A stretch of 6,389 nucleotides of DNA from a virus (Duplodnaviria; Heunggongvirae; Uroviricota; Caudoviricetes). The notes beneath the pieces were generated by a model. That model did no database searches, was not told where the DNA came from, and saw only the letters and a program-made list of their open reading frames with translations. Location: the IMG/VR virus record IMGVR_UViG_2706794662_000016. One strand, written 5' to 3'. The position numbers and the translations under genes are program-made. Below, one piece after another: positions 51-6,347 of the stretch. The first letter of the stretch is position 1. Each line of letters starts with the position of its first letter.

Positions 51-61
51 GGGCAAATCCA
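1..61 (+). mobile_element. IS2: IS2 right terminus (IRR); body of the element lies left of the window
   Basis: Reverse complement of 1-61 reads TGGATTTGCCCCTATATTTCCAGACATCTGTTATCACTTAACC..., which I recognise as the IS2 right inverted repeat. Codons at 3-50 translate to [15 protein letters not shown]-stop, matching my recollection of the InsD/OrfB C-terminus. Recalled, not searched. Confidence 0.8.
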
Positions 62-116
62 CAACCAGTTGAGCGGATTCGCGTTTAAACTCTGCGCTAA
101 AATTTCTTTTTTTCAT
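62..116 (-). pseudogene. IS911-like orfA (transposase A) N-terminal fragment, disrupted by IS2 insertion
   Basis: Only 18 codons present before the IS2 junction at 61/62. Confidence 0.7.
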
Positions 117-188
117 TGGAGCACCTGTGTTGTTCTGAGGTGAGCATATCACCTCTGTTCAGGTGGCCAAATTCAGTGTGCCACTTCA
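62..188 (-). mobile_element. IS3-family (IS911-like) left end: terminal inverted repeat plus first 18 codons of orfA, interrupted by IS2
   Basis: Minus strand from 188 reads TGAAGTGGCACACTGAATTTGGCCACC..., an IS3-family terminus (TGAAGTGG). Complement of 114-116 is ATG, followed by [18 protein letters not shown], which matches my recollection of IS911 OrfA; the frame is cut at 61/62 by the IS2 end. Confidence 0.7.
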
Positions 189-642
189 CTTAGCAGCACC
201 TAAGCAACAATTGACTAACAGATTCGGTAGAGTCTATCTCATAGGTCAACTTCATAAACTCAGAGCTAAGTTACCTTGAAAGATTCTACCAAGAACTACA
301 CAGGTGTTATTTAGTCTGACTGTGAAGGGATATTTAACGGGAGAAGAGATACGATATAACCCGAAGGGAGAGTATCATCTTAACAATTATCTTAAGAATA
401 AAAACTGAAAAACTCTTAACAGATAACCACCTAGAAAGAAGGGAACGATAAGACCAGAGGTAGTGACCTGTTAAACAGGCTGTTTCAAAGTCTCTTAAAT
501 AAGTAAGGTCATGTGAACAATCTTACCATTTTGTCAATGCTTTTGTCTTTGACCTAAATCAATAAAATGTATCGTTTGATATGCTTTTAAACAAAATAGC
601 TAAAAAATCTTTTTTTAGAGGGGCGCTTCGCTTGGGGTCACT

Positions 643-930
643 ATGAATGATTTTTCTCTCGCTAAGAGAGCGCTTACAGAGGTCTTTCAAATCTCAATAG
701 CCAGCCGAGGAACACAGGAAACCGAGGGAAGAAAAACTATTGTGATTACCTTGAACAAGGTCTGTAAAGGTCGTTTAAGAGGTCGGTTAAGAAAGGAGCT
801 TCCCTCTCTGGGGTTATCGCTCTTCTCCCGATTAGTGGGGCGGTTAAGAGGGCTTGAAGTTATCTGTGAAGGTACTGGACAGCCTTATATATTGGGTGAT
901 TACAACTCGTTGAAAAATAAGCATTTTTAG
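643..930 (+). CDS. Doubtful ORF (95 aa) overlapping DNA repeats; likely non-coding
   Basis: Six-frame ORF with ATG, but no convincing SD or promoter upstream. Its repetitive peptide (GRLRGRLR...GRLRG) simply mirrors tandem 12-bp DNA repeats, and its 3' end lies inside direct repeat R1. Confidence 0.2.
   Translation: MNDFSLAKRALTEVFQISIASRGTQETEGRKTIVITLNKVCKGRLRGRLRKELPSLGLSLFSRLVGRLRGLEVICEGTGQPYILGDYNSLKNKHF
769..850. repeat. Iteron-like 12-mers GG(T)CG(T/G)TTAAGA: tandem pair 769-792, third copy 839-850
   Basis: Direct reading: ggtcgtttaaga / ggtcggttaaga / ggcggttaagag. A related ggtcgtttaa occurs at 1422-1431 inside repeat element A. Confidence 0.6.
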
Positions 931-1042
931 AAGTTACTGTTAAGGTTGCAGAGTTGTCTGTGAAGAGACTTGTCAGTTCTCTATATATGGCTAATTACAA
1001 CTTATTGAAAAATAAGAACTTTTAGAAATTACTGTCAGAGAG
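859..1042. repeat. Two tandem direct repeats of about 90 bp (R1 859-945, R2 953-1042), roughly 80% identical by eye
   Basis: Both copies share gtt(a/g)tctgtgaag ... tatatat(t)gg ... attacaac ... ttgaaaaataag ... ttttagaa(g/a)ttactgt, aligned by eye. Confidence 0.7.
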
Positions 1043-1117
1043 GTGAATGCTTGATAGATACAGCTTTCCGGTTCTGTCAAGCTATTTTTTAATGGATAGC
1101 ACAAAATGCTAAAGACA

Positions 1118-1162
1118 CCCCTGTACCATAGACTTCTATCTGTCATCTCGTGCAGGGGTTTT
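1118..1162. terminator. Palindromic hairpin (CCCCTG ... CAGGGG) followed by TTTT; weak candidate bidirectional terminator at the 3' end of the minus-strand gene
   Basis: 6-bp GC-rich stem at 1118-1123 and 1153-1158 with a T-run at 1159-1162; the 29-nt loop weakens the call. Confidence 0.25.
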
Positions 1163-1170
1163 GAAGGAGT

Positions 1171-1503
1171 TTAACGGGGGTCTGTGTGGTCGTTATCCTT
1201 AAGGTCAAGCGTCCATGTACGACCGAACAGTTTAAAGACAACAAGCACTCTGACGAGGACGTAGCGAAGTAGCAGGCCTGCAATCAGCCCAATACCTCCA
1301 CCAGTCCATACATCAGGTGACCCCAGCTCAGGAGGGAGATTTACCATTAGTTTTCCTTGTAAGACGCTCTCAATCGCATTCTGACACAAAAAGTACCTGA
1401 CCTTATGAGTTGACCTGAAGAGGTCGTTTAACTCGTTACAGGGCGATTGAAGAGGTCTGTGTGCAATGCAAAATATGCGACCAAATACATAGCCACGCCT
1501 CAT
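1171..1503 (-). CDS. Hypothetical small protein (110 aa) with hydrophobic C-terminal segment; alternative 58-aa product from internal ATG (complement 1345-1347)
   Basis: A minus-strand promoter lies immediately upstream, with SD GGGGAGAG 6 nt before the ATG at complement(1501-1503). The C-terminus GGGIGLIAGLLLRYVLVRVLVVF is hydrophobic. The internal Met53 has its own SD (AAGGA). The N-terminal third is encoded across repeat element A, so its true extent is uncertain. Confidence 0.5.
   Translation of the reverse strand: MRRGYVFGRIFCIAHRPLQSPCNELNDLFRSTHKVRYFLCQNAIESVLQGKLMVNLPPELGSPDVWTGGGIGLIAGLLLRYVLVRVLVVFKLFGRTWTLDLKDNDHTDPR
1362..1459 (+). repeat. Bipartite repeat element, copy A: conserved 5' arm (1362-1392) and 3' arm (1426-1459) around a variable core; arms carry inverted repeat CTCAATCGC / GCGATTGA(A)GAG
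   Basis: Near-identical to copy B in both arms (5' arm about 29 of 31 nt, 3' arm 31 of 34 nt by eye); the cores differ in sequence and length. Confidence 0.65.
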
Positions 1504-1525
1504 ATTTTACTCTCCCCATAAACCC

Positions 1526-1555
1526 ATTATACCACAGATGTTACGAAAATGTTAA
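1526..1555 (-). promoter_or_regulatory. Sigma70-type promoter on minus strand (TTAACA - 18 nt - TGgTATAAT) driving the 1171-1503 gene
   Basis: The -10 is complement of 1526-1531 (TATAAT) with an extended TG; the -35 is complement of 1550-1555 (TTAACA); SD and ATG follow within about 25 nt. Confidence 0.6.
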
Positions 1556-1561
1556 AAATAC

Positions 1562-1590
1562 TTGACATTAGTCTTTGAAAATGCTAATAT
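1562..1590 (+). promoter_or_regulatory. Sigma70-type promoter P1 (TTGACA - 17 nt - TGcTAATAT) driving the 1642-2953 operon
   Basis: Consensus -35 TTGACA at 1562-1567, 17-nt spacer, extended -10 at 1582-1590. Its -35 sits 6 bp from the -35 of the divergent minus-strand promoter. Confidence 0.65.
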
Positions 1591-1641
1591 TGTATATATA
1601 GGTTAACAGAATAATAACATCTTATGAGAGTCAGAACATGA

Positions 1642-2199
1642 ATGCAGTATTCAGAATTTAGAGCGATGCTTCAGGCATCAAGAGAACGCAACAAGCACAA
1701 CTCCTACGCTTACACAAACAACCCCACCAGCTACGAAGTCCCAACCTTTAGCAAATCCGAACGTAAGAACATTGAAGCGGTCATTCGTAGCATTACGCCA
1801 CGAGACAGATTTATGCCAGTACGCAAAACAACAAAGAATACTATTAAAAATTATCTGGCTAACTTTGACAGTTACGAGCAGTTACCAAGCAAGCTTGATG
1901 ATGTTTTTATTGGGTTCTGTAGAAGTGAAGGCCACCCGAAATACAACAAAAAACTATTTTATCTGCTAAAGAATCTTGACGAAATTAACGCATCCACCGT
2001 GACAAATCATCTTCAGCGACAGGCAACCAGACTTAGTTACGAATTACCAAGCGATAAATATTGCGCTTTGCTTGCTGTGATGTGCGCGAAATTAATTGGC
2101 ATTGTTGAACATCATATTGCCGTTGGGAATATTGAGCCAATGGAAAACGAGCAACCAGATTTCGAGTTTGACCCCTATTTAGTTACAGAGGATTTTTAA
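1642..2199 (+). CDS. Hypothetical protein (185 aa), first gene of operon
   Basis: Long ORF downstream of P1; the stop TAA at 2197-2199 abuts the next ATG. No family recognised; the SD is weak. Confidence 0.7.
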   Translation: MQYSEFRAMLQASRERNKHNSYAYTNNPTSYEVPTFSKSERKNIEAVIRSITPRDRFMPVRKTTKNTIKNYLANFDSYEQLPSKLDDVFIGFCRSEGHPKYNKKLFYLLKNLDEINASTVTNHLQRQATRLSYELPSDKYCALLAVMCAKLIGIVEHHIAVGNIEPMENEQPDFEFDPYLVTEDF

Positions 2200-2478
2200 A
2201 TGAATAAACACACATTAACCAGAGTTACAAAGACAGCCTTTGATGAACTGAACCGAATCAAAAACATTACAGGTCTGCCACACTCAGCAGTGATGAAGCT
2301 TGCAATTAACCGTGATATTAACGAACAGGATTTGCTTAATAGTCGCTTAGAGGCTGCAAGACACCATATCAGGATTAAGCAAGATGACCTTGATAGTCTG
2401 AAATCCTTAAATGCTTTTGGACTGGATTTAGCAAGGTTACTAAGTATCAAAATTCACAAACTGTCTCAGGAGGTCTGA
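2200..2478 (+). CDS. Hypothetical small protein (92 aa); possible ribbon-helix-helix-like N-terminus
   Basis: SD GAGGA 8 nt upstream; start abuts the upstream stop (TAAATG). The N-terminal HTLTRVTKTAFDELNRIKNITGLPHSAVMKLAI fits a strand-helix-helix pattern by eye only. Confidence 0.7.
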   Translation: MNKHTLTRVTKTAFDELNRIKNITGLPHSAVMKLAINRDINEQDLLNSRLEAARHHIRIKQDDLDSLKSLNAFGLDLARLLSIKIHKLSQEV

Positions 2479-2480
2479 TT

Positions 2481-2753
2481 ATGAAGCAATGGCGAGATGA
2501 TATTAAACGGTTCTTTGCAACTTACTTCATGATTAATTATGAGACAGGAATGCTTGAATGGATTGATGGTGGAGAGGTTAAGACAAGAGATGATGCTTAC
2601 GGTAATCCAATGATTCGTTATGGCACTCGTGATTATTATCTGAAGTATGTCATCTGGTTTTTGCATCATGAAGTTCAGGCAACTAAAAAGATTATCTTCA
2701 GGGATGGTAATAAAAGAAATTGCCACCCAAACAATTTACTCCTGGAGATTTAA
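2481..2753 (+). CDS. Hypothetical small protein (90 aa) with degenerate HNH_3-like signature (IIFRDGNKRNCHPNNLL); catalytic His apparently replaced by Arg
   Basis: Strong SD AGGAGG at 2468-2473, 7 nt before the ATG. The motif resembles the HNH_3 pattern HxDGNKxNN...NL from memory, with R in place of the first His. Confidence 0.7.
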   Translation: MKQWRDDIKRFFATYFMINYETGMLEWIDGGEVKTRDDAYGNPMIRYGTRDYYLKYVIWFLHHEVQATKKIIFRDGNKRNCHPNNLLLEI

Positions 2754-2953
2754 TGTTATGTATTAAATTCGAATATTTGACAGATAAAATGATTAAGCAT
2801 GTATCAGACCTGCTCATCAAAGAAGGTGGTTTCGGTGATGCTTGCAATCCAAAAGATATCTTCATTCATGCCACCAGCCCAAACGCAACACTAAAGACAG
2901 CAGTTACAGCGGAATGGTTTGAACGAAATAAAGCGGAATTAGGTTATTGGTAG
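2753..2953 (+). CDS. Hypothetical small protein (66 aa from ATG 2753; the track ORF begins at an upstream TTG at 2720)
   Basis: ATG overlaps the upstream stop (TAATG at 2751-2755); GGAG lies 6 nt upstream. Confidence 0.55.
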   Translation: MLCIKFEYLTDKMIKHVSDLLIKEGGFGDACNPKDIFIHATSPNATLKTAVTAEWFERNKAELGYW

Positions 2954-2990
2954 TCCGAGACTTTAAGAGAAATTAGAAAAACAGCTTATC

Positions 2991-3111
2991 AGACGCTCTC
3001 AATCGCATTCTAACGCAAAAAACTATCTTATTTTAGGGTGGGTAATACCACTGTACAGGCTACCCCTGAAAAAGACTGTTTAGCTCGTTACAGAGCGATT
3101 GAGGAGGTCTG
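2991..3111 (+). repeat. Bipartite repeat element, copy B: 5' arm 2991-3021, 3' arm 3078-3111, internal inverted repeat CTCAATCGC (2998-3006) / GCGATTGAG (3095-3103)
   Basis: Intergenic, with no ORF across it. Arms match copy A; the core contains palindrome CTGTACAG and a CCCCTGAAAAAG segment. Confidence 0.65.
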
Positions 3112-3131
3112 GTAAAAAGGAGATTTTAAAA

Positions 3132-3455
3132 ATGAACGAATATGAATTACAGATTTTCATTGATAGCGACACTGCTATGATGGTGCAGGCTTTCGCTGAT
3201 TCCGGTGTATCAATTGACCTTGATAAATTACTAAAGCTAATGGCTGAAAACTCAGAAGAAATTGAAGACTTTATTCAGGAAATTGAAACTGGTGAACCGC
3301 GTTTTATGTTTCCTGTTACCGACTCAAACATGAAGCGTCTTATTATCGAAGAAACGAACAAATACAGCGTTAGCCCTGAAAAATATCTCAAGGCGGCTAT
3401 AGCAATTTTGTATAGCGATAATATTCTGGTGACGGATTCGAAGGTGGTGCATTAA
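3132..3455 (+). CDS. Hypothetical acidic protein (107 aa from ATG 3132); possible RHH-like C-terminal region
   Basis: SD AAGGAG at 3117-3122, 9 nt before the ATG; the track ORF begins at an upstream TTG (3099) inside repeat B. C-terminal FMFPVTDSNMKRLIIEETNKYSVSPEKYLKAAIAIL fits a strand-helix-helix pattern by eye. Confidence 0.7.
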   Translation: MNEYELQIFIDSDTAMMVQAFADSGVSIDLDKLLKLMAENSEEIEDFIQEIETGEPRFMFPVTDSNMKRLIIEETNKYSVSPEKYLKAAIAILYSDNILVTDSKVVH

Positions 3456-3520
3456 TGGAATTGGTGATTATCTGTTTTGTATTGATTGGTATGATTGCAG
3501 GTGCATCTATTAAAGTATAA
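3455..3520 (+). CDS. Candidate micro-ORF, 21-aa hydrophobic peptide (MELVIICFVLIGMIAGASIKV)
   Basis: ATG overlaps the upstream stop (TAATG at 3453-3457); SD-like AAGGTGG at 3441-3447, 7 nt upstream. Not in the ORF track (below its length cutoff). Confidence 0.3.
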   Translation: MELVIICFVLIGMIAGASIKV

Positions 3521-3544
3521 ATGTTACCAATCTGTTAAAAGCTG

Positions 3545-3573
3545 TTGACAAACAACCTTGAGCATGACATAAT
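3545..3573 (+). promoter_or_regulatory. Sigma70-type promoter P2 (TTGACA - 17 nt - TGaCATAAT)
   Basis: Consensus -35 at 3545-3550, 17-nt spacer, extended -10 at 3565-3573. Followed by TGTATATATGG, which also follows P1. Confidence 0.6.
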
Positions 3574-3742
3574 TGTATATATGGGGGAGAGCAATTCTCT
3601 CTTATTTTTTCTTTCAATAATCCGATGGATGGATATTCTGAGTTGGAAAGGTGCAATGCTTTTCGTCCTAGCCTTTCAGGTTGGTCTGAGAGGCTATCTC
3701 AAAAAGTCTTTGTTCATTCATTATTGAATCCTTTACAGCTTT

Positions 3743-3770
3743 GCCCTAATCATGAGTTAGGGCTTTCTTT
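3743..3770 (+). terminator. Candidate intrinsic terminator (GCCCTAA - 7-nt loop - TTAGGGC, then TTTCTTT)
   Basis: Perfect 7-bp stem at 3743-3749 and 3757-3763 followed by a U-rich tract. Confidence 0.5.
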
Positions 3771-3840
3771 AAGAGTTTTTAAACAGAGCTTTTAAAGAAA
3801 GTTTTCCTGAAACTTCGTTAACGTTATAAGCAAACCTCCA

Positions 3841-3875
3841 AAGCCCTTCACAGATTATGTTTAGGGCTTTTCTTA
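3841..3875 (+). terminator. Second, weaker hairpin paralogous to the 3743-3770 hairpin (AAGCCCT ... AGGGCTT then TTCTT)
   Basis: 7-bp stem with a 15-nt loop; shares TTAGGGCTTT(T)CTT with the first hairpin. Confidence 0.3.
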
Positions 3876-3946
3876 ATAGAGCATCTTTAATAAATCGTTA
3901 AGTCATCTTCTAAGTGTATTGGCGTTGAAGGTGCTCTATTAAGAAA
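3869..3946. repeat. 15-bp perfect inverted repeat TTTCTTAATAGAGCA (3869-3883) / TGCTCTATTAAGAAA (3932-3946) with 48-nt spacer, in the leader of the 3971 gene
   Basis: Extended base by base until the first mismatch. A second interleaved inverted repeat, CTAAGTGT (3910-3917) / ACACTTAG (3952-3959), abuts the SD GAGG at 3959-3962. Confidence 0.65.
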
Positions 3947-3970
3947 TAACCACACTTAGAGGAAATTATA

Positions 3971-4681
3971 ATGACAAACGATTTATATATTAACGGTAAA
4001 AAGGTTGATAGCTTCGGAGACTGGTCACCACAGGGTGAACATCCGCTACATACTATTCAGCGTCAAGAGCATGACAAGCGCATTGAGCTTGAGCAAGAGC
4101 TAAAGATGTCACCAAAGGTAATTTCCTTTGTGTCTCCTGAGCCTCAAGAAATGCCTGATATCTGCAAAACTGAAGCACTATTTGAGCTTGAGCGTGAATA
4201 TTACCCAGCTTTAAAATCACAGCGTCTTAGACTTGATGTCGCTTACGATGCTGTTAAGAACTTCGAAGAAACCTCGAAACCTTCAGAATATGATATTGCT
4301 TACGAGATTAAGTCAAACCCGTTTATCTATTATGAAGGAAACTTTAATGATGGTTTTGGTACAGCGATTGAAGACGTTCCTAAAGTTCTTCAAAGTATCC
4401 CTGAAGGGTTCCGGTTAATTGATGTCAGACAAGCATTAAGGGGTTCTGGTCAATTTATTCTGATGACTGATAAAACAGATGAAGAGATTCTTCAGTTAGC
4501 TGAAGCTAATTTGACTAAGCATTATTCCGGTAAACTGGATAAGTTAAAGCAAAAGCTTAAAAAAGAACTTGATACTATGAAAGAACTTGTTAGTGAATAT
4601 GAGTCGCAGAAGAAGATTGCTTTGATGGCTGATATTGAGCAGTTAACGAAGATTTCTCAGAAGTATAGCAAGGCTGTTTGA
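3971..4681 (+). CDS. Hypothetical protein (236 aa)
   Basis: ATG with SD GAGG 8 nt upstream; long ORF. No family recognised. Confidence 0.8.
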   Translation: MTNDLYINGKKVDSFGDWSPQGEHPLHTIQRQEHDKRIELEQELKMSPKVISFVSPEPQEMPDICKTEALFELEREYYPALKSQRLRLDVAYDAVKNFEETSKPSEYDIAYEIKSNPFIYYEGNFNDGFGTAIEDVPKVLQSIPEGFRLIDVRQALRGSGQFILMTDKTDEEILQLAEANLTKHYSGKLDKLKQKLKKELDTMKELVSEYESQKKIALMADIEQLTKISQKYSKAV

Positions 4682-4703
4682 TTATGAATTAAAGAGGTGA
4701 TTA

Positions 4704-4913
4704 ATGTTTGAAGAACGTTTAGAGACTATTCGGTCTGTTTGTGAAAACTTAAAGTTACAAACTAAGCCAGCCTTAAGAATTAAAAACAAACGTCAAGTTA
4801 TCACCTCACACAAACCAAAAACACGCAAGATTCCAAAGTGGTGTATTGACCGTATTCCTTCTGATGCTCAAATCATAGGTGAAACGGAATTACATTATCT
4901 TGTCCGACATTAA
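4704..4913 (+). CDS. Hypothetical small basic protein (69 aa)
   Basis: SD AGAGGTG immediately upstream of the ATG; followed by a terminator. Confidence 0.65.
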   Translation: MFEERLETIRSVCENLKLQTKPALRIKNKRQVITSHKPKTRKIPKWCIDRIPSDAQIIGETELHYLVRH

Positions 4914-4936
4914 AAAAGAATTGGTTGGGTAAATAC

Positions 4937-4979
4937 GGGGAGAGATTATCGAGTGACATCGGTAGCTCTCCCTTTTTTT
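4937..4979 (+). terminator. Intrinsic terminator (GGGGAGAG ... CTCTCCC then TTTTTTT)
   Basis: 7-bp GC-rich stem at 4938-4944 and 4966-4972 followed by seven T at 4973-4979; the 21-nt loop is long. Confidence 0.6.
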
Positions 4980-5069
4980 GTATGTGTGCTACGTGAAATC
5001 TGTAAAGCTAATACCCACACTGAAAAATAGAATTTACGTACAACACGCTTAAAGAGGTGAAAAATATGA

Positions 5070-6347
5070 ATGGCACAATTTAAAGTTGATGATTTTCTGA
5101 TTGAGTTAAGTTTTAACTCTCAGAAAGTTTTAAAAGGCTTGGAAAAAGCCGAGAAACAAACGATGCAGGTAGCATCACGAATTGAGAAGCGATTGAATAA
5201 GTCGTTTAGAGTTAATCCTACGCCTTTAAATGATTCTCTCAAACTAATGGAAAGAAATGTCGATAAAACTGTTTCCAAGATTGAGCAGCGTCTTAAAAAC
5301 ACTAGAGCGTTTAAGATTAAAACTGAAATTGAGGATACTTTAAAGCCACTTAGACAACCAAGACAGCCACGAATTAGCGGAAGCAGAGCAATCACAGCAG
5401 CTTACTCAGCGAATATGAGCAAGCTTCGTGACTTTAATCCTATGCTTGAGAAGTATTTTAAAAGCCAGTATTACAGCTTAAGCAGTAAATCCAAGACACT
5501 TGGAAACGAAACTTTTAATCGTGAGTTAGCAAAGTTAAATCAGTCTCTTCGTGAAACACTTTCTAAGTTTAACAAGACCACCAGCAAAAATAATCACAGT
5601 GAAAATGCTTCAAATAGTCTGGATGTATTAGCTACGAGTGCAATCAAAGCAGGTACAGCCATTTATAGTTTTCAGACAGCCTTAGAAGCTTACAGGCGGA
5701 TTATGGAGGTTGGTCTGAAAAAAGAAGCATCACAACGAGCGGCACAATTCGTTTTAGGTGATGAAGGTGCTAAACGAGCTACAGAATTTGTTAAGAATCT
5801 TGCTGATAGTAGTGGTGTAGACCAGATTGAAACATTAAGCAGTTTTGCTAAGTTTTCCGCTGGTGCTGGTGATATGAATGCAGACCAGAAAGAATCCTTA
5901 TTTTCTAATGTGATTGGTACATCCAGATTAATGGGGCTAAGCACCGATGAAATTAACGGGATTTTAAAAGCTTTCGAGCAGATGGCATCTAAAGGAAAGA
6001 TTCAGGCTGAAGAGCTACGCGGTCAATTAGGTGACAGAATGGCAGGTGCTTTTCAGTTATTTGCCAGAAGTCTTGGGATGACTACGGAAGAATTAGACAA
6101 GGCCATGAAAGACGGTAAGATTCTTTCTAAAGATGTTCTTCCTAAAGTATCCGCTGAAATGGGAAGGATGATTGATAAAGCTGGTGGATGGGAAAAGATT
6201 ATTAACTCTACTCAGACGCAGTTAGGCCGCTTAAGTAATTCATGGAATAATAATCTGGCCTTAATGTTCGATGGTTCACAGGAAGGTTTAACAGACTTTA
6301 CAAGGTCACTGACTAATTTACTTAATTCACTAAATAGCTGCGCTTAA
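5070..6347 (+). CDS. Tape-measure-domain protein (425 aa), lambda gpH-like N-terminal region; possibly a truncated remnant
   Basis: SD AAAGAGGTG 10 nt upstream. The motif EELRGQLGDRMAGAFQLFARSLGMTTEELDKAMKDGKILSKDVLP matches the conserved phage tape-measure core as I recall it, and the N-terminus MAQFKVDDFLIELSF resembles lambda gpH MAEPVGDLVVDLSL. Domain assignment is from memory. Confidence 0.8.
   Translation: MAQFKVDDFLIELSFNSQKVLKGLEKAEKQTMQVASRIEKRLNKSFRVNPTPLNDSLKLMERNVDKTVSKIEQRLKNTRAFKIKTEIEDTLKPLRQPRQPRISGSRAITAAYSANMSKLRDFNPMLEKYFKSQYYSLSSKSKTLGNETFNRELAKLNQSLRETLSKFNKTTSKNNHSENASNSLDVLATSAIKAGTAIYSFQTALEAYRRIMEVGLKKEASQRAAQFVLGDEGAKRATEFVKNLADSSGVDQIETLSSFAKFSAGAGDMNADQKESLFSNVIGTSRLMGLSTDEINGILKAFEQMASKGKIQAEELRGQLGDRMAGAFQLFARSLGMTTEELDKAMKDGKILSKDVLPKVSAEMGRMIDKAGGWEKIINSTQTQLGRLSNSWNNNLALMFDGSQEGLTDFTRSLTNLLNSLNSCA

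Follow-up and report, generated by a model that had tools for sequence, protein, structure and literature searches.

Phased TGTTAA Hexamer Pairs as a Candidate Common Regulatory Site of Three Promoters in a Satellite-Like Island of Escherichia coli and Its Relatives

Introduction

The 6,389-nucleotide stretch of DNA catalogued as IMG/VR virus record IMGVR_UViG_2706794662_000016 (below, the window, with positions counted from its first letter) contains two closely spaced divergent promoters, Pleft and P1 (1526-1602), and a third one, P2, located 2 kb downstream. It is a decayed Shigella sonnei copy of an integrative island of ~11 kb, which looks like a phage satellite, possibly of a new family, judging from its gene content. 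A preliminary description of the window drew attention to the motif TGTATATAT(A)GG, present over the expected start sites of both P1 and P2, and considered it a plausible operator for a common regulator, possibly one of the small ribbon-helix-helix (RHH)-like proteins encoded nearby. Here we argue for another distribution of roles, to which we assign a probability of about 50%: the promoters would be real, the motif would be the start-site stretch of a duplicated promoter cassette, and pairs of TGTTAA hexamers adjoining the promoters would constitute their shared regulatory site. Strong divergent promoters equipped with short repeated operators are of a well-known kind, and the TGTATATAT motif is the least informative part of the arrangement. 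What is new is the setting, a satellite-like island related to a virulent phage genus, and the match between the promoter-flanking sites and the terminal repeat of Felixounavirus phages.

Results

Predicted Promoters Pleft, P1, and P2

The promoters have the following composition.

1555..1526, minus strand: Pleft; -35 TTAACA (1555..1550), 18-nt spacer, TG-extended -10 TGgTATAAT (1534..1526); 11/12 matches
1562-1590, plus strand: P1; -35 TTGACA (1562-1567), 17-nt spacer, TGc-TAATAT ending at 1590; 10/12 matches
3545-3573, plus strand: P2; -35 TTGACA (3545-3550), 17-nt spacer, TGa-CATAAT ending at 3573; 11/12 matches

In a consensus scan these are the three best sigma-70 matches of the whole window, while weaker promoter-like sites do not exceed their number in shuffled sequences (22 vs 15.9 +/- 3.6). 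Start sites predicted from sequence fall at about 1519 for Pleft, at A 1596/1598 for P1, and at A 3579/3581 for P2, and the -35 hexamers of the divergent pair are separated by only 6 bp (1556-1561). The promoters are kept in 13-22 related loci of E. coli, E. albertii, Citrobacter, and Salmonella, and the pattern of substitutions is instructive. In P1, the -35 element and the TG are invariant across the family with the -10 drifting at positions 3-5 (TAnnnT, represented by TAATAT, TAGTAT, TAGGAT, TAAGAT, and TAATGT); the -10 and TG of Pleft are conserved in 13 loci, the same 13 in which the TG of P1 is invariant; the TG of P2 is lost in a single locus (L010), where the -10 improves to TAAGAT. 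In the Citrobacter island, Pleft is among the top two promoter-like sites. All three sites combine the hexamers, the 16-18 bp spacing, and the TG of extended -10 sigma-70 promoters with conservation of key positions and drift of non-contact ones. Such a pattern, with -35 and TG invariant and -10 confined to TAnnnT, fits promoter function, and we infer that all three promoters are active.

The divergent pair with its 6-bp gap and the position of P2 at 3545-3585 had been placed in the preliminary description exactly where they were found here, and the back-to-back layout looks real, being conserved across the island family. Its wording “switch-like” holds for the geometry but not for the function, since Pleft drives a 58-aa membrane protein rather than a repressor and no DNA inversion is observed between loci. 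An invertible-DNA switch was rejected as well: all loci are collinear over window positions 324-1700, and the small serine recombinase, whose orientation differs between loci, belongs to the variable cargo. Neither TATATAT nor the hexamers of O-R (see below) could supply a second promoter, there being no acceptable -10 or -35 partner for them, and an Rfam scan of the window gave no match at E <= 1.

TGTTAA Hexamer Pairs at the Three Promoters

A repeat search flagged segments 1536-1555, 1603-1622 (inverted), and 3521-3538, each of which contains two hexamers placed about one helical turn apart.

1538..1555, plus strand: O-L; ATGTTA-cgaaaa-TGTTAA, hexamers 11 bp apart, at -42 to -59 of P1
1603..1620, minus strand: O-R; inverted pair, reading TTAACA-gaata-ATAACA on the plus strand, at about +6 to +23 of P1
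3521..3538, plus strand: O-P2; ATGTTA-ccaatc-TGTTAA, at -42 to -59 of P2

O-L ends 6 bp upstream of the P1 -35 in the window (6-7 bp across loci) and O-P2 ends at the same offset of 6 bp from the -35 of P2, beginning directly after the stop codon of an open reading frame (ORF) for a 21-aa peptide. The proximal hexamer of O-L, if read from the opposite strand, is the -35 element of Pleft. The pattern ATGTTA-N6-TGTTAA has three matches in the window against 0.09 expected. Each of 8 islands of ~11 kb has three copies in corresponding positions, besides which there is one stray match in cargo DNA, and when 19-46 kb of flanking chromosome are included, a strict form of the pattern is found at these promoters only. 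Comparison of loci revealed that the hexamers are invariant or nearly so, whereas the 5-nt spacers between them vary; O-R is conserved in all loci including those of Citrobacter and Salmonella, at a distance of 51-54 bp from O-L. TGTTAA-N5-TGTTAA therefore behaves as expected of an operator, that is, as a site repeated above chance at promoter elements, with half-sites fixed and the spacer varying. On these comparative grounds, the TGTTAA pairs represent a conserved cis-element common to all three promoters and a better candidate operator than TGTATATAT, and hexamers paired at one helical turn would be the signature of a protein reading two of them.

P1 and P2 as Copies of One Cassette and the Start-Site Stretch

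P1 and P2 can be aligned without gaps over 67 nt (1536-1602 vs 3519-3585) with 46/67 identical positions, the background of this comparison being 18.8 +/- 3.7 and the best value elsewhere 33. Identity is distributed unevenly: 15/18 in the upstream site, 6/6 in the -35, 8/17 in the spacer, 3/6 in the -10, and 9/9 in TGTATATAT. Judging from this alignment, P1 and P2 are paralogous copies of one cassette extending from about -60 to +5, and owing to the collinearity over 67 nt, the shared downstream motif is to be regarded as a segment of the duplicated cassette rather than an isolated coincidence. Features relevant to this stretch are listed below.

1591..1602, plus strand: TGTATATATAGG, A/T-rich stretch at about -6 to +5 of P1, the motif of the preliminary description
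3574..3584, plus strand: TGTATATATGG, start-site stretch of P2, its last bases forming the foot of a 5′ hairpin
858-1047: tandem unit of ~95 bp in two copies, R1 (858-940) and R2 (952-1035)

As the preliminary description had noticed, the same TGTATATAT follows both promoters: it occurs exactly twice in the window (1591-1599 and 3574-3582), each time from the base next to the -10, which exceeds expectation (0.04; none of 200 shuffles reaches two copies). The distribution of variants in related loci is less favorable for its operator role. Across the family (14 distinct sequences and Salmonella), the P1 motif reads TGT[A/C/G][T/C][A/G]TAT followed by 1-3 variable bases, and only 5/9 of its columns are invariant as compared to 14/17 in the -35/-10 spacer. 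At P2, 22 distinct sequences (Salmonella included) fall into four alleles, namely TGTATATAT (8), TTTAATTAT (10), TTTAAGTAT (2), and GGTAATAGG (2), all of which occur in islands with complete gene sets; an identical 9-mer is present at P1 and P2 in only 5/15 islands, and the length of the motif differs by up to 2 nt across loci. The constant feature is A/T-richness over 9-12 nt, with TAT(A)G/R at the end, in the interval separating the -10 from the next conserved element; at P1 this interval, up to O-R, measures 10-12 nt. Hence TGTATATAT(A)GG lacks the conservation at all regulated promoters across relatives that an operator should have, and four P2 alleles together with 5/15 matching 9-mers make it a poor operator candidate. 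Occupying about -6 to +5, where A/T-richness without exact sequence is expected of a strong promoter, it is on present alignments an easily melted start-site stretch of the cassette and not a shared operator. The suggestion of a common regulator acting via a shared operator is supported, then, in its first half, a regulator shared by P1 and P2, while the choice of TGTATATAT(A)GG as its site is not.

TATATAT by itself is mildly enriched in the window (six matches vs 0.94 expected; 2/200 shuffles reach six), and TATATAT-(T)GG is indeed found in R1 (886-895) and R2 (982-990), with no usable promoter there, as the preliminary description stated. The reverse complement of R1 914-944 is 71% identical to the core of P1, but the similarity between R1 and P1 is no better than the background maximum (33/67).

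Likeness to Felixounavirus Phages

Islands of this family carry genes for a tape measure protein (TMP) and a Dit-like tail protein, and the nearest phage relatives of the TMP are Felixounavirus myoviruses of ~86 kb. The Dit-like protein is 66% identical to gp119 of Escherichia phage garuso and the TMP 31% identical to gp118; in garuso the Dit-like gene also directly follows the TMP gene, and patches of DNA are 71-78% identical. Phage garuso was scanned with the island operator pattern that had been defined beforehand. The first 50 kb gave 11 matches against 0.81 +/- 0.84 expected, 9/11 of them within ~530 bp (49418-49950). This cluster belongs to a gene-free region:

garuso, L030 48953-50000 together with L031 1-602: gene-free stretch of 1.65 kb around the terminal repeat

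The stretch contains 30 TGTTA[AG] hexamers with 11 bp as the commonest spacing, compared with a median of 3 per 1650 bp across the genome and a 99.9th percentile of 10 elsewhere. In phage vB_EcoM_D4, to which PhageTerm assigned direct terminal repeats (PMC11737134), the first 581 bp are identical to the last 581 bp and the repeat holds 23 hexamers. The terminal-repeat region is conserved in 255 phage records with Escherichia, Salmonella, Shigella, and Citrobacter as hosts, which coincides with the host range of the island. TGTATATAT takes no part in this link, being present in garuso once, inside coding DNA.

The left non-coding regions of the islands share patches with the repeat or its adjoining DNA in every island compared except L003, mostly of 45-60 nt at 80-87% identity. 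In Citrobacter, a patch of 149 nt spans the repeat boundary (L012 4559-4704). The patch of the window is as follows.

425..474, plus strand: Felixounavirus-repeat-like patch, 83-87% identical; corresponds to garuso 49673-49724 and D4 259-303

Patches of this type could mimic a packaging or replication signal. To the right of it, iteron-like repeats G(G/T)TTAAGA(G/A)G are spaced 12 bp apart at 763-792 and 829-849 (GGTCGTTTAAGAGGTCGGTTAAGA, GGGCGGTTAAGAGGGC) and resemble the phage unit TGTTAAGA with one change.

The likeness of the island to Felixounavirus tail genes and terminal repeat is clear as far as sequence comparison goes; likeness is no proof of helper dependence. How gene expression is regulated over time in Felix O1 is not understood, according to the paper on its genome (PMC3185647), and a literature search found no description of either the role of the terminal-repeat hexamers of Felixounavirus or a protein reading them.

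Structured Leader of P2

The P2 leader of the window is non-coding and ~390 nt long, while that of P1 is unstructured. Its main elements are the following.

3581..3612, plus strand: 5′ hairpin of the P2 transcript, stem 3581-3590/3596-3605, then a U-rich tract (T1, terminator-like)
3743..3771, plus strand: T2, GCCCTAATCATGAGTTAGGGC followed by TTTCTTT, terminator-like, with hairpin 3743-3763

The first hairpin (3581-3605) has a predicted energy of -10 kcal/mol (z = -3.05) and is conserved: 87% of cells are paired, with two compensatory pairs, the alignment register beats all slid registers, and 2/500 shuffles reach its covariation score. In the window the stem contains G+C and is followed by a U-rich tract as in an intrinsic terminator; the U tract is found after the hairpin in 12/21 leaders, whereas the hairpin itself is conserved. 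T2 is also present in 12/21 leaders, with stem variants, so that 19/21 leaders possess at least one terminator-like site, on average 1.14 per leader vs 0.12 in shuffles. Expression of the tail genes is probably also controlled after initiation, and the 5′ hairpin may additionally stabilise RNA. Further downstream, an inverted repeat of 22 nt (3869-3946; 91% complementary, arms 34 nt apart) ends 24 nt before the start codon of the 236-aa gene and may govern translation or processing in this leader.

Genes Read From the Promoters and Candidate Binders

Transcription units assigned to the three promoters are listed below.

1171..1347, minus strand: 58-aa single-pass membrane protein (MVNLPPELGSPDVW.GGGIGLIAGLLL...), product of Pleft
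1642..3520, plus strand: P1 early operon of six ORFs
1642-2199, plus strand: 185 aa (p185), P1 operon
2200-2478, plus strand: 92 aa (p92), P1 operon
2481-2753, plus strand: HNH protein, 90 aa, P1 operon
2753-2953, plus strand: 66 aa, P1 operon
3132-3455, plus strand: 107 aa (p107), P1 operon
3455-3520, plus strand: 21-aa hydrophobic peptide, P1 operon
3971..6347, plus strand: P2 operon; 236 aa (3971-4681), 69 aa (4704-4913), truncated TMP (5070-6347)

Among the products of the P1 operon, p92 is the best island candidate for the TGTTAA binder, judging from its composition and predicted architecture. It is basic (pI 9.8), and its sequence can be read as two units, each made up of a short polar strand and two helices separated by a turn with Gly, the putative beta-strand segments HTLTR and RxH[I/V]RI being the most conserved parts of the family. 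Formal evidence for the RHH fold is weak. Comparison by hhalign with a hand-typed CopG sequence gave 52% probability with 37 columns in register; AlphaFold2 modeled two coil-helix-helix units at low confidence (pLDDT 47), and in a Foldseek search with this low-confidence model CopG (1ea4_B) ranked 5th, non-significantly (E = 7.4). No RHH family matched p92 above threshold and profile searches of the PDB were negative; in Pfam only DndE appeared, at 15-16 bits, below the cut-off of 25, and a sub-threshold match to P27-family small terminase was noted (E = 0.027). About 95 weak remote homologues of p92 were discarded as artefacts of a profile contaminated by the chimeric row P0034; the true family comprises ~10 clusters.

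The 107-aa protein, also put forward in the preliminary description as an RHH-like regulator, did not hold up in this role: it is acidic (pI 4.2, 21 acidic vs 9 basic residues), has no family or PDB match, no RHH profile among them, and its AlphaFold model is of low confidence (pLDDT 46). It is an unlikely DNA binder, while p185 is a possible one.

The membrane protein read from Pleft forms a family of 58-62 aa represented in all loci including Citrobacter, starts at 1347 on the minus strand, and is annotated by PGAP in its short (58-aa) form in L003 and L007. Profile and PADLOC searches gave no family match for it; a function as a toxin, in exclusion, or like that of a holin is conceivable. 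A longer leftward ORF of 110 aa (to 1503) was rejected as a regulator, its N-terminal half and start codon not being conserved. At the other end of the P1 operon, the 21-aa ORF overlaps the stop codon of the 107-aa gene (TAATG); it has a second allele of 25 aa in other islands and is annotated in no record. The 236-aa protein of the P2 operon is labelled “transposase” by the NCBI pipeline in several genomes, yet has no Pfam, NCBIfam, or PHROG match, and the label looks like an annotation error.

Discussion

Proposed Mechanism

If the TGTTAA pairs are the regulatory site common to the three promoters, the system may operate as follows. Pleft and P1 would fire outwards, to the membrane-protein gene on the left and to the small-protein operon on the right, and P2, 2 kb downstream, would head the operon that includes the tail genes (tape measure and Dit-like). 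One sequence-specific protein reading phased TGTTAA would bind O-L, O-R, and O-P2. At O-L it would occlude Pleft; from O-L and O-R it would bracket and repress P1; and at O-P2 it would sit beside the -35 of P2 and modulate this promoter. Because the phased hexamer also fills the terminal repeat of Felixounavirus, the binder might be either an island protein, with the basic p92 as the best candidate, which also recognises phage DNA, or a phage protein which also recognises the island, and either would couple island transcription to infection by a Felix O1-like phage. Transcripts initiated at P2 would then begin with the conserved hairpin and, in most cases, run into one or two terminator-like sites ahead of the first gene, giving a second, post-initiation level of control.

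A more far-reaching extension, which we offer tentatively and consider less likely than not, is that these islands form a novel type of satellite whose helpers are virulent Felix O1-like phages, with the TGTTAA pairs as infection sensor. In one version, an island repressor residing on Pleft, P1, and P2 would be titrated by phased TGTTAA sites, of which dozens are present in the terminal repeats of incoming and replicating phage genomes; in the other, the phage's own terminal-repeat-binding protein would switch the island promoters. Under both versions, helper recognition would depend on a DNA motif common to phage and satellite and not on a protein-protein trigger. Felix O1-like phages are widely used in typing of Salmonella and E. 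coli, biocontrol, and therapy. A functional link would explain in simple terms how a parasite residing in the chromosome recognises a virulent phage, would bring to light a hidden host factor in the success of Felix O1-like phages, and would point to a protein reading their terminal repeat.

Several observations weigh against this scheme. Repressors do not classically bind where O-P2 lies, at -42 to -59 of a consensus promoter; TTAAAAA beside the -35 may serve as a proximal UP element; and the likeness of P1 and P2 upstream of the -35 may simply go back to the duplication. A strict looping model is weakened by the O-L to O-R distance, which ranges from 51 to 54 bp. Conservation has limited power here, the P1-region alignment representing a closely related family with 87% mean column identity. 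As for the phage, the likeness of the sites extends to the 6-mer core and the 11-bp phasing but not to the flanks (phage TTGTTAAGA vs island TGTTAA[A/C/T]). The regulatory proteins of the island had no homologue in the candidate helper phage by tblastn, hmmsearch, or phmmer, so a binder common to both stays a conjecture drawn from the DNA sites; likewise, the assignment of p92 to RHH proteins is tentative.

Alternative Explanations

One alternative is that there is no dedicated regulator at all and that TGTTAA and TTAAAAA belong to promoter architecture (UP element, bent DNA, or -35-like sequence), the promoters being constitutive or H-NS-silenced and the similarity to the phage repeat arising from common descent or chance. 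The A-tract TTAAAAA(A) does occupy about -44 to -38 of both P1 and P2, the island with its 38% G+C is compatible with AT-rich foreign DNA, the hexamer flanks differ between island and phage, and TGTTAA on the other strand is TTAACA, 5/6 of the -35 consensus, used as such by Pleft. We nevertheless hold this view unlikely: O-R lies downstream of the P1 start, where neither UP nor -35 function can be ascribed to it, yet in all loci its hexamers stay fixed while its spacer changes; no variation is seen in the distal hexamer (-54 to -59) either, although this lies outside the proximal UP subsite; and the phage array is extreme and belongs to the genus closest to the island tail genes. It is improbable, too, that the TGTTAA pairs are packaging or replication sites for a small-terminase-like or initiator protein, with their proximity to promoters being incidental. 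Small terminase and HNH genes are known as neighbors in HK97-like packaging modules; here an HNH endonuclease gene follows the gene of p92 with its sub-threshold P27-family match, the island has neither replicase nor terminase of its own, and the phage arrays lie within a direct terminal repeat, which is a landmark of both packaging and replication. The exactly equal -35 offset at P1 and P2, the overlap of O-L with the Pleft -35, and the restriction to three pairs per island, all at promoters, speak for transcription control instead, and the part of the island truly resembling the terminal repeat lies elsewhere, at 425-474.

Two further explanations give the leading role to the start-site stretch. 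According to one of them, TGTATATAT(A)GG is the operator by which a small RHH protein of 92 or 107 aa co-represses P1 and P2 and perhaps binds R1 and R2. The two copies abutting the -10 elements, the 9/9 identity, which makes TGTATATAT the best-conserved P1/P2 segment in the window, the loose consensus T-TA--TAT(A)G kept in the TTTAATTAT and TTTAAGTAT alleles (though not in GGTAATAGG), the retention of TATAT(W)(T)GG in R units of all loci, and the weak RHH-like signal of p92 are all in keeping with it. Set against four P2 alleles in intact-looking islands, the shared 9-mer in 5/15, a length varying by up to 2 nt, conservation at P1 below that of the spacer, R units conserved throughout so that TATATAT is not singled out in them, and the acidic nature of p107, this explanation has little chance of being correct. 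Still less credible is the proposal that TATATAT acts as a -10-like sigma-70 pause element at which a Q-like or AlpA-like antiterminator loads in order to pass the terminators of the P2 leader, even though near-consensus P2 followed by terminator-like sites in 19/21 leaders recalls the lambda layout PR′-6S RNA-tR′. No hexamer within the stretch combines A at position 2 with T at position 6 (TATATA is devoid of T at the last -10 position and ATATAT of A at position 2), most islands have another sequence instead of the motif at P2, P1 carries the motif but has no terminator in its unstructured leader, and no Q or AlpA homologue was detected in profile searches of island proteins. A regulatory site made of TGTTAA pairs, with TGTATATAT as start-site stretch, thus keeps our preference.

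Comparison With Known Systems

The arrangement may be set beside several well-studied ones. Like the immI region of phage P22 (Pant/Pmnt with the RHH repressors Arc and Mnt), it combines closely spaced divergent promoters with short operators overlapping both. Arc and Mnt are small repressors binding in pairs about one helical turn apart, and one protein can shut one promoter while affecting the other. Unlike immI, the island sites are direct hexamer pairs in both orientations that recur at a second promoter 2 kb downstream, the product of the leftward gene is a membrane protein and no regulator, and the RHH fold of the candidate binder is tentative. The omega repressor of pSM19035 recognises short phased units, direct or inverted, at several promoters and in this way coordinates them, as proposed here for TGTTAA; unlike contiguous heptads of omega sites, the island unit is 6 bp long at 11-bp spacing, and no sequence relation to omega was found. 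Lambda PR/PRM resembles Pleft/P1 in the distance between outward starts (82 bp vs ~78 bp here) and in operators placed within the shared upstream zone; unlike in lambda, no repressor gene is read from either island promoter beside the operators, and nothing indicates bistability. In lambda PR′/6S/tR′, as in P2, a strong promoter is followed by a non-coding leader and terminator(s) before structural genes; in contrast to lambda, the island has no Q gene or recognisable pause element, and its first hairpin is often located at the very 5′ end of the transcript.

Among satellites, PLE of Vibrio cholerae, which exploits ICP1, is relevant. PLE (PMC9638900 and related abstracts) is, like the island, small, chromosomal, equipped with a large serine recombinase, and devoid of capsid genes; both would be related to or dependent on a virulent myovirus and silent until infection, the helper dependence of the island being presumed. 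Unlike PLE, to which no protein homology was detected, the island has genes for tape-measure and Dit-like tail proteins as well as DNA that mimics the terminal repeat.

Origin of the Window and the Island Family

Exact matches of the 185-aa and 107-aa proteins are Shigella sonnei proteins, and positions 189-6332 of the window are 79-93% identical to islands of ~10-11 kb in E. coli. In the S. sonnei copy, the left part of the island is replaced by ends of two insertion sequences, and similarity to intact islands ends at 6332, leaving a TMP gene truncated to 425 codons.

1-61: IS2 end, left part of the window
58-188: IS911 end, left part of the window

The P1 region was found in 409/5426 complete E. 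coli genomes (~7.5%, about 1 in 13), and further hosts are Shigella, E. albertii, Citrobacter, and Salmonella. Intact islands, for which L001 (18300-29400), L003, L005, and L029 were taken, reside at no less than three chromosomal sites, that is at least in yciI/tonB, ymdF/wrbA, and inside yecE; E. coli A0 34/86, ECONIH4, and ES5 are among the strains possessing one. The order of elements in intact islands, from left to right, is given below.

Leftmost: variable cargo (small serine recombinase, Dam methylase, or HNH-AP2 protein)
Next: ~1.3 kb of conserved non-coding DNA
Next: leftward small gene, then the divergent promoters
Next: small-protein operon, then P2 with a leader of 300-450 nt
Next: 236-aa and 69-aa genes, then TMP (PF20155)
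Right end: Dit-like tail protein (PF21821), then large serine recombinase

In these respects the island resembles a satellite: it is a small integrated element with its own integrase and no full set of virion or replication genes, TMP and Dit being the only recognised virion genes. Searches against Pfam, NCBIfam, PHROG, and PADLOC gave no above-threshold assignment of its small proteins, the 90-aa protein having sub-threshold matches to HNH endonucleases, and none of the island proteins matched PADLOC defence-system models. Neither the 185-aa and 236-aa proteins nor the promoter DNA matched any of 50,697 phage genomes, counterparts there being confined to the TMP gene, the Dit gene, and short patches of non-coding island DNA. 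Literature searches returned no account of the island or of a Felixounavirus satellite.

Other Features of the Window

Every island has the highly conserved R unit, either singly or in duplicate. Besides TATAT(W)(T)GG, the unit contains the sequence ATTACAAC and the near-palindrome TTGAAAAATAAG-N3-TTTTAGAA. Another module of ~100-120 nt is represented in the window by two direct copies, A (1356-1459) and B (2985-3111), whose conserved ends pair with each other (AGACGCTCTCAATCGC/GCGATTGAGGAGGTCT). Copy B lies directly ahead of the 107-aa gene and forms a rod-like hairpin (-49 kcal/mol, z = -5.1); copy A is predicted to be transcribed antisense, from Pleft. A compensating variant is found in L010, and the copies A and B are present or absent independently of each other among islands; the module might function in processing, be a mobile palindromic element, or act as a trans-antisense pair.

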